20,856 nt of DNA from a virus (lineage: Duplodnaviria > Heunggongvirae > Uroviricota > Caudoviricetes): positions 1 through 20,856 of IMG/VR virus record IMGVR_UViG_2529292985_000021. One strand, written 5' to 3'. The position numbers were made by a program. How positions within the stretch are numbered: the stretch's first letter is position 1; every line of letters starts with the position of its first letter. Below, in pieces: positions 10,601 through 13,600 of this stretch.

Positions 10601-13600
10601 CTTCGCTTCGCGCGGGGTATGCCCCTTACTGCTGCCTTTACCCATTCCTCACGCTCCATAAACGACAAAACCGCCCGCAGGCGGTTTCACATGAAACATT
10701 TTGCATCAGCGACCAATCACCACAACCTGACCACCATCCCCTTCGTCTGCCGTGCTGATCTCCTGAGATACCACCCGCGACCCCACGCGCATTTCACCGT
10801 ACAGAACAGGCAGAACATTGCCCTAGGCAACCATGTTATCCAGTGAGGAGAAACAGGTGTTCTGTTTGCCGTTATCCGTTGTCTGTGTACGGGGAGTTCT
10901 GGCTTTCGGTGCCAGCATCTGTGCAACACCGCCAAGCGTCATACTGGCACCGAGAGAAAACAGCAGATTACTCGCCATAATTCCTACCCCCGGCATCCAT
11001 ATAGCAACCGCCATAACAGCTGCCCCCAGCACCGCCTGAAACACACCGCCACTTTTAGCTCCCACCAGACGCGGTACTATGTGGATCACTGCACCATTTG
11101 CCAGCGGCTCATTAAGACGGGCAGACAATTCGGTTTCACCTGCATCACGCCCGGCAATGCGCACCTGATACCAGCCGTCACTCAGTTTCTGACGAAACGC
11201 CGGGAGCTGTGTGGCCAGTGCGCGGATGGCTTCAGCCCCCGTTTTCACACGAAGGTCGATGCGGCGGCCAAATCGTTGCAAATCCCCGTAAAGGCAGATG
11301 CGTGCCATTCCCGGTGACGCCAGAGGGAGTGTGTGCGTCGCTGCCATTTGTCGGTATACCTCTCTCGTTTACTCAGTTGTTCAGGAATATGGTGCAGCAG
11401 CTCACCGTCGCCGCAGTAAATGGCGGCATGATTCGGCACCGATGAACCAAAACAGCACAGCAGCACATCGCCCGGTTGTGCTGATGACAACGGCACCTGA
11501 TACAGCCCTGTGGCCTCCAGATTATCCAGATAGAGATTCTGACCGTGACGCCACCAGTCATCCCCGCGATGAAAATCCGGCATCTCAATCCCCGCCAGAT
11601 GATAAGCATCCCGGAACAGCGTGTAACAGTCCGTCACCCCGTGCTCAAAGCGCCGCCCGGTGAGATGCGGCACACAGCGGAACTTGTGAATCGCCCCCCG
11701 GCAGGCCAGCCACCACGGCAAATCACTCTGCACCTGCAGCCGCCGGTCAGCCTCACTCAGCCAGGGCAGACCACCGGGATGACTGTGGACCAGTGCCACA
11801 ATCTCACCCTGCATTTGTGCCCGCAGCCAGTCCTCCGGAGCCATCCGGAACCGTTCCTCCGGCTCACCGGAGATATTCTCGCTGGGAAGATACATGTCTC
11901 CCTCCGGCGTTCTCACCACGAAGCCGCACGACTCCGCTGGCGCACATCGCCGGGCGTGCGCCAGAATCGCTGATTCTGTCTGTGTCATGGATTTACTGAG
12001 AAAGTTTATTGATGGAAAGGAAACCGCCGAAATTACCGGTATTGTTGCGCAACTCACACCCGCGCATACACTTGCTGCATTTGTCCTTCCGGATATCCGT
12101 CGTTGGTTTGTCGAACTCGTCAGCCACTGCCCTGCCCGTGTAACCACACTCATCAGAACGGTAGGTCCACATACAGGTATTCGCCAGCATGATACGCCCC
12201 GGGAAAACCACGCCATCCGTCTCCGTTGGTGTGGCCAGCACAAAAGAGGCACTGACCGCGCTCAGTTCACTGCACTGCTCGATGCGCCAGCGGCTGATCA
12301 CCTCCTGCTCCGGATCGGCGTCACTGTTTCCGTTGACGAAGTTCACCGCATCCAGAAAACGGGCGTAAACCTTACGCCGGACCACCGTTCCGCCGACCAG
12401 ACTCTGCAGATCTTCCGCCATCCCGGCGACCATACCGTACAGGTTAGAAACCGTCAGCGTGGGGCGCGTACTGGTGCCTTTGCCATTCAGTTCAAAACCA
12501 CTCCCCTGAATGGGATACGGCTGATACTGTCGCCCCTGCCAGGTGACCGGCTCACCTTTTTCGTTCTGCTCATTACAGAAAAAATAACGTTCTCCACCGA
12601 CCTCTGTCAGGTCGATTTCCCAGAGCACCACGCTGGCCGACTGCTCCGCACGGGTGCATTCATTCAGTGTTTCCTGCCGGATATCCTGCATCAGTTCACC
12701 ACCTGTTCAAAATCGGCCGTTACAGTCACCCATAACGCCCCCACGCTTGCCGACCATTTACGACAAACCACCCTGATCGGTTTCCAGTCATAAGGTGGCG
12801 TCCACTGAAATGCGCGGACGCCACCGTGCCGTTCCAGAAAGGCTTTTAAAGGTGGGTGTTCACCTTTACGAACACGTATCGTCACGCTGTAAGTCGACAG
12901 CAGATTATTCAGTCCCGCCGGGCGACGCTGTTCATAACCATCACCCAGCTTCACTGCCACCACTTTTGGCTCTGATACCACATTCATATCCGGGCGCACC
13001 TTCCAGCGAAACGTCTCCATTACCGGTATGCTCCACTTAACCGGCCACCATCACGGGCCTGCTGTTGCATAAAGTCCGCGGCCGCTTTTTTCCCGAGGTC
13101 ATAAACCACCTTCAGTGCTGCCGGACCTATCTGCCCGTTCGTGCCGTCGTTATTGATCCCGATGTTGTACTGCGGGGCAAACATCACCATGCCTGAACCA
13201 CCAGTATCCGCCACAACCCCCAGCTTACCATCAGCACCGCGACGCAGTGGCAGAATGGCTTCAGGTCCCGCTTCCCCCATCACACCCGCTCCTTTTGCAA
13301 AAGCAAAAAACGTCGGACGGTTAACCACCGTGCCACTGTAGCGACTCAAATCAGCAGACTGGTAAACACCGCCATCAGCATTAGTCGTGAAGCCGAATAA
13401 AGAACCGACGCCCTTTACCGCCTGCATCATGGCCATCTGTGCCATAATTCTGGCCATATCTGACAACAGGGAAGAGGTGAAGGATTTAAAATTCAGCTTA
13501 CCGGTGGTACAGAATGTCGCCAGTGCATTACCGGCACTGCTGAATGCCACTGTAAACATCTGTTCTGCCGTTCCCGCCGCATTATCCGCATCCGCCGTAA

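Follow-up and report, generated by a model that had tools for sequence, protein, structure and literature searches.

Does the amber codon that interrupts a lambda-type tail tip gene on a Shigella contig mark a suppressible mutation of an otherwise functional phage, or one of several lesions in a decaying prophage? We addressed this question for a window of 20,856 nucleotides, that is, the whole stretch of DNA analyzed here, which is identical to the complete draft contig AERM01000114.1 of assembly GCA_000193895.2. The contig locus defined in our comparisons (L019) lies exactly inside the window in reverse complement. From its accession series, the window probably derives from Shigella dysenteriae CDC 74-1112.

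Reading frame and ancestral codon of gene I

The whole of gene I occupies 10706-11347 on the minus strand and lies between K, which encodes a C40/JAB peptidase, and J in a lambda-type tail module, as established by tblastn and gene calls. Its minus-strand translation (11347-10706) begins at an ATG at 11347 with MAATHTLPLASPGMARICLYGDLQRFGRR. The truncated ORF of 174 codons (10826..11347, minus strand) ends in ...NTCFSSLDNMVA, also written ...KQNTCFSSLDNMVA, and is followed by the amber codon TAG at codon 175 (10823..10825, minus strand). The same frame then encodes another 38 codons, GNVLPVLYGEMRVGSRVVSQEISTADEGDGGQVVVIGR, up to the native TGA at 10708-10706, and this orphaned 3' end of the gene spans 10706..10822 on the minus strand. 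The distance from the TGA to the ATG of J at 10645 is 60 nt. The initial annotation of this DNA had described the same arrangement, with a TAG at 10825-10823 after ...SLDNMVA, 38 sense codons and a TGA placed before J, and each of these elements was confirmed. A run of 38 stop-free codons has a chance probability of about 0.16, calculated as (61/64)^38, so the open frame alone is not significant; it is the homology to lambda gpI that makes the frame non-random. The spacer between I and J contains a GC-rich hairpin, AAACCGCCTGCGGGCGGTTTTG, at 10660-10700 on the minus strand. A promoter and terminator scan around the I-J junction returned no candidate, the spacer hairpin falling below the T-run criterion of the scan.

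The truncated product matches the Pfam family PF06805 (Lambda_tail_I) over residues 14-97, with an E-value of 6.2e-24 and 84.7 bits against a cut-off of 23.8. When the stop codon is read through, residues 1-213 of the translation align with residues 1-223 of lambda gpI (PDB 8iyk chain I, E 3.7e-108), and the same 223-residue lambda 'Tail tip assembly protein I' was matched in the PDB entries 8iyk, 8iyl, 8k35 and 8xcg. The 38 post-stop residues are identical to lambda gpI 186-223, as expected from the initial claim that lambda gpI possesses this C-terminal tail, and the stop itself aligns with lambda Gln185. At the DNA level, gene I therefore shows the features of the gpI family, namely the N-terminal domain and full-length similarity including the C-terminal beta-strand segment. 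As an expressed protein it would be missing that segment, because the amber codon cuts off 39 residues.

In the DNA alignment, the amber site is occupied by CAG in phage PhiR49_1 and three E. coli prophages, and also in two S. flexneri contigs. Among the near-identical proteins of S. flexneri and S. sonnei, Gln is found at codon 175 in S. flexneri and in one S. sonnei sequence, these being the ones that reach this codon. Since all six intact copies have CAG and lambda has Gln, the TAG is a nonsense mutation of a Gln codon. Judged from these alignments, the amber is a C-to-T transition on the coding strand, corresponding to G-to-A at plus-strand position 10825. Both the Gln codon (CAG) that the initial annotation had placed here and the transition deduced from it are thus supported by alignment with intact I genes. 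Downstream of the amber, the DNA differs from the S. flexneri copy at four positions, all of them synonymous. One more change is confined to the amber allele: codon 165 (10853..10855, minus strand) is TGT instead of the TAT of the relatives and lambda, which replaces Tyr by Cys through a substitution at 10854. At this site, lambda and each of the six intact copies in the alignment have Tyr, and Tyr165 is likewise found in the S. flexneri and S. sonnei proteins.

The likely consequence for the protein can be judged from the lambda virion. There, residues 135-223 of gpI form a trimeric tripod, or plug, in the lumen of the tail tip, which supports the C-terminal coiled coil of gpH and is held to gpJ via three beta-sheet augmentations (PMC10721106). 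The plug has been assigned to residues 159-175, and the gpI strands that follow it pass through gaps of the gpJ hub domains and keep their order in the closed as well as in the open state (PMC11101478). The part of gene I retained before the amber encodes the Lambda_tail_I N-terminal domain, the hydrophobic helices and the plug segment, and the part removed comprises the last 39 residues, Gln175 and the 38 that follow. A stop at the equivalent of residue 185 would thus spare the plug of the protein, if expressed, and would remove most of the C-terminal strand region. By analogy with the lambda structures, the truncated gpI is probably unable to support tail tip assembly.

Distribution of the amber allele

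We used the 63-residue C-terminal segment of gpI, with the Gln and the Tyr restored, as a tblastn query against phage records. Altogether 323 records had a match. The segment is at least 95% identical in 79 of them, and in 42 of these 79 it is at least 99% identical. Lambda, 434, lambda imm21 and many coliphage isolates are among the records that keep it, and recognisable matches reach phages of Serratia, Burkholderia and Xanthomonas. Functional phages whose gpI naturally ends at the amber position would have spoken against a nonsense mutation, according to the initial annotation; none was found among the 323 matching phage records, and in 283 of them at least 80% of the segment is covered, so that the C-terminus is kept.

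The allele was also searched for in bacterial genomes. A 61-mer around the site was compared with 5426 complete E. coli genomes, and none of the 6262 matching places in 3518 of these genomes carried the TAG; the best E. coli matches differ from the TAG-bearing 61-mer at exactly one base. An amber-bearing 33-mer had no match among the GTDB species representatives, a set with one genome per species in which the source strain is evidently not included.

By exact-sequence look-up, 4 NCBI contigs were found to carry the 174-aa product. Annotated as a 141-aa protein that starts at an internal GTG, this product is present on 21 contigs, 11 of which are chromosomes of more than 1 Mb. In total, the truncated gpI is found on about 25 contigs (12 of them larger than 1 Mb) from assemblies of the Shigella boydii/dysenteriae type, and the organisms given as the source of the proteins are Shigella sp. 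FC1544, Shigella boydii and Shigella dysenteriae CDC 74-1112. At the nucleotide level, 11 additional loci from other assemblies that include the site have a gene I 100% identical to that of the window, TAG included; nine of these loci are on chromosome-sized contigs. A twelfth locus has a single difference, a synonymous TAC-to-TAT change at codon 183, downstream of the stop. Of all sequences compared, those that combine the amber with Y165C belong exclusively to the S. boydii/dysenteriae-type group.

This distribution bears on whether the TAG is an error of sequencing or assembly that hides a true CAG and an intact gene I. The window is indeed a short-read draft contig that ends in IS1. However, the TAG recurs within an identical gene I in the 11 other loci, which come from independent assemblies and are mostly on chromosome-sized contigs, and the exact truncated products occur on about 25 contigs, so that we give an error practically no chance. 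On this comparative evidence, we regard the amber allele as real, heritable and fixed in one Shigella group, and not as a private event. An origin from a laboratory lambda Iam stock was considered and rejected, given that many assemblies carry the allele, that the DNA is only ~94% identical to the nearest phage record, and that the locus is chromosomal and lies near pgl and ipaH.

The M-L-K-I region is 99.85-100% identical among the amber-carrying loci. Because the loci diverge so little, the lack of amino-acid changes downstream of the stop is expected, and hence it is not evidence of continued translation. The initial annotation had also called the mutation recent. The unchanged protein sequence downstream of the stop favours this description, whereas the fixation of the allele in a Shigella group with later, differing IS insertions sets a limit to it.

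The same sequence identity could be taken to mean that selection has preserved the truncated gpI for a new bacterial role outside the virion. All amber-carrying loci agree in every base of the 522-nt truncated ORF (100% identity), and the flanking J is locally diverged by up to 1-3%. However, the divergence of J is localised in what appears to be a recombination patch, and the M-L-K-I region as a whole is nearly identical anyway, which makes the identity of gene I unremarkable. The untranslated 3' remainder is equally conserved, which argues for youth instead, and the Tyr-to-Cys replacement is non-conservative and affects a position at which lambda and the six aligned intact copies all agree. 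We therefore consider such selection very unlikely. The same low probability applies to the broader proposal that a truncated gpI consisting of the N-terminal domain, two hydrophobic helices and the plug is either selected for a bacterial function or completed by low-level UAG read-through. A selected function, if there were one, could be associated with the membrane and connected with the adjacent ipaH island.

Layout and lesions of the prophage remnant

The gene order of the remnant is V-G-T-H-M-L-K-I-J-lom, followed by tail fibre genes and ipaH, according to tblastn with PhiR49_1 proteins and the gene calls, which agree. On the minus strand, the two methods place T and G at about 16033-16756, the tape measure gene H at 13020-16061, M at 12691-13020, L at 11993-12691 and K at 11245-11988, and J follows in two pieces within 7167-10645. 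Beyond J are lom (6500-7099), a tail fibre N-terminal protein (5150-6478) and a DUF4376 tail fibre protein (4576-5199).

Three tail genes other than I are broken. The N-terminal part of J (791 codons, 8270..10645, minus strand) ends prematurely after a 1-bp deletion at ~8306, and the C-terminal part (368 codons, 7167..8273, minus strand) continues in another frame, with the Phage_Tail_Tip and Ig_GpJ_C gene calls on the contig locus. The missing base is one C at 8306, as compared with the intact 1159-aa J of an S. flexneri contig (L020). The region of the tail assembly chaperone T (16033..16376, minus strand) is split into two frames by a 1-bp deletion at ~16272, identified by comparison with an E. 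coli O121 prophage in which T is intact (L002); in tblastn, T residues 1-35 are in frame -2 and residues 39-111 in frame -1. With this deletion, correct synthesis of the G-T fusion product would be impossible. Finally, the tail tube gene V (16815..17548, minus strand) lacks its first 7 nt including the start codon and is joined to the end of an IS66 element at its eighth nucleotide, with an in-frame TGA directly upstream and the first usable ATG at 17501. No U, Z, FII or head genes were found on the window contig, where IS66 and IS1 occupy their place.

The V/IS66 junction and the 1-bp deletions of T and J recur in each of the amber-carrying loci that extend over the respective site. In addition, sister strains have gained other insertion sequences (in J, IS1 or IS110; in H, IS3; near FI and Z, IS4) as well as extra breaks in H, K and V. 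Since the four lesions, including the amber, are common to loci with differing later insertions, they predate the diversification of these strains. In the window itself, K, L, M and H are long and apparently intact ORFs, which could be read as residual constraint; the lesions of H, K, V and J in sister strains counter this reading.

J also differs from the rest of the module in its substitutions. Its N-terminal part contains a cluster of 32 substitutions within 500 bp relative to the S. flexneri copy, at ~9000-9500, and the variant of the window in this interval was seen in only one other locus (L012). Most of the 42 mismatches to sister loci lie in J, and M-L-K-I has 5 differences in 3.4 kb from one of them (L015). 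The cluster at ~9000-9500 is probably a recombination patch.

The lesions of V, T and J decide how the initial statement that the amber would be suppressible in a supE background is to be understood. The supE suppressor inserts Gln at UAG. At the level of the codon the statement stands, as Gln would be restored, but the phage would not be rescued with V, T and J broken and the head genes gone, which makes supE suppression irrelevant to the phenotype. One can still propose that the amber is conditionally functional, with a supE-like suppressor of the host or UAG read-through giving full-length gpI and a working tail module. The UAG is at a Gln codon, so that supE would restore precisely the wild-type residue, and the 38 downstream codons are without amino-acid change. 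Such a module would nevertheless have to assemble with a V that has no start codon and with frameshifted T and J, and U, Z and the head genes have been replaced by IS66 and IS1. Moreover, a tRNA scan of the window found no tRNA gene. No relative has a TAG at the site, so a recoding signal is not conserved, and on the same ground programmed read-through was rejected. We consider conditional function extremely improbable. Judged from these lesions and missing genes, the amber in gene I does not represent a conditional-lethal mutation of a phage that is otherwise viable.

The remaining parts of the window connect the remnant with the chromosome and with mobile elements. The chromosomal flank is represented by pgl, encoding 6-phosphogluconolactonase (694..1695, minus strand; NCBIfam NF008258, E 2e-167). 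Sister strains have a gene of the mannitol dehydrogenase family as the flank and E. coli O121 has yecD/aspS, which indicates IS-driven rearrangement. The ipaH gene (2570..4396, plus strand) matches NCBIfam NF046045 IpaH_Shig with 562.6 bits against a cut-off of 550, and its product has the LRR_TTSS and NEL domains. This product is 608 aa long in the window and 583 aa or 374 aa (the NEL domain alone) in sister strains, reflecting either polymorphism or further decay of the cargo gene.

At the other end, an IS66-family element with TnpA, TnpB and TnpC (17549..20054; NCBIfam IS66 transposase, E 1e-134, and IS66 TnpA) is bounded by imperfect terminal inverted repeats at 17544-17572 and 20031-20059. 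Its TnpC is seemingly N-terminally shortened, at 467 aa compared with 530-533 aa in sister strains. Sister strains without a full IS66 at this place keep a 32-nt IS66 end before V, which suggests a single ancestral insertion with later IS-mediated rearrangement. An ORF of 133 codons with a weak GyrI-like/RobA C-terminal match (20020-20421, minus strand) overlaps the IS66 inverted repeat. The contig ends in an IS1 fragment (20408..20856; NCBIfam transpos_IS1) that is 99.8% identical to an IS1 copy in another locus (L005), and contigs ending inside IS1 are typical of short-read assemblies.

Probable neutral decay of gene I and comparison with known systems

Gene I has a TAG where homologues have CAG, homology that continues downstream of the stop, independent lesions elsewhere in the module and an allele that recurs among assemblies, all of which are features of a pseudogene. 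We consider it very likely that the amber-bearing gene I is a pseudogene that arose by neutral decay of a defective lambdoid Shigella prophage remnant and was fixed by descent. In the proposed scenario, a single C-to-T transition turned the CAG codon 175 of a lambda-type tail tip gene into an amber codon, as one step in the neutral decay of the prophage; both the neutrality and the order of events are our reading of the present-day loci. The amber would then have been fixed by descent in a clonal pathogen lineage of the Shigella boydii/dysenteriae type and would now be without effect. The remnant may persist as a carrier of ipaH, or may merely not have been deleted yet. The amber could also have been the first, truly inactivating hit instead of a neutral later one.

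The gpI family of lambda, the amber-pseudogene type of lesion and the setting of a decaying, ipaH-carrying Shigella prophage are already known, and the truncated ORF is already present in public annotation under ordinary names. The locus is a clean and well-documented case of a Shigella prophage remnant decaying by point mutation and surviving as an ipaH carrier; in itself it matters little. Its practical use is twofold. In annotation, gene I is best labelled a pseudogene interrupted by an internal stop rather than a 'tail assembly protein' of 141 or 174 aa. In addition, the TAG at codon 175, Y165C, the 1-bp deletions in T and J and the V/IS66 junction could together serve as a lineage marker of the S. 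boydii/dysenteriae-type group.

Compared with lambda gpI (8iyk/8iyl/8xcg/9e7m; PF06805), gene I shares the K-I-J gene order, an I-J spacing as anticipated in the initial annotation and, if the stop is taken as Gln, a full-length match. It differs in its length of 213 codons versus 223, with a shorter hydrophobic linker, in the amber at the position of Q185, and in the Cys that replaces lambda Tyr175. The classical amber (sus) mutants of lambda tail genes, which are suppressible by supE or supF, also have a UAG at a Gln codon of a tail gene. In contrast to these mutants, the present allele arose naturally in a chromosomal prophage remnant, and this remnant also has non-suppressible frameshifts (T and J), a V gene without its start and no head genes.

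The locus also resembles the ipaH islands of Shigella and enteroinvasive E. coli, which have in common with the window a lambda-like tail module, lom, tail fibre genes and an ipaH effector, as well as many IS elements and pseudogenes. Prophages and pseudogenes frequently surround the ipaH copies of the chromosome (PMC9046306). In the closest complete E. coli genome, that of E. coli O121, ipaHd is located beside the same tail module; gene I is intact there, as it is in the S. flexneri copies, unlike in the window. The O121 element nevertheless has pseudogenes of its own, with H frameshifted, an internal stop in J and IS1 in a head-tail joining gene, which shows independent decay of the same kind of element.
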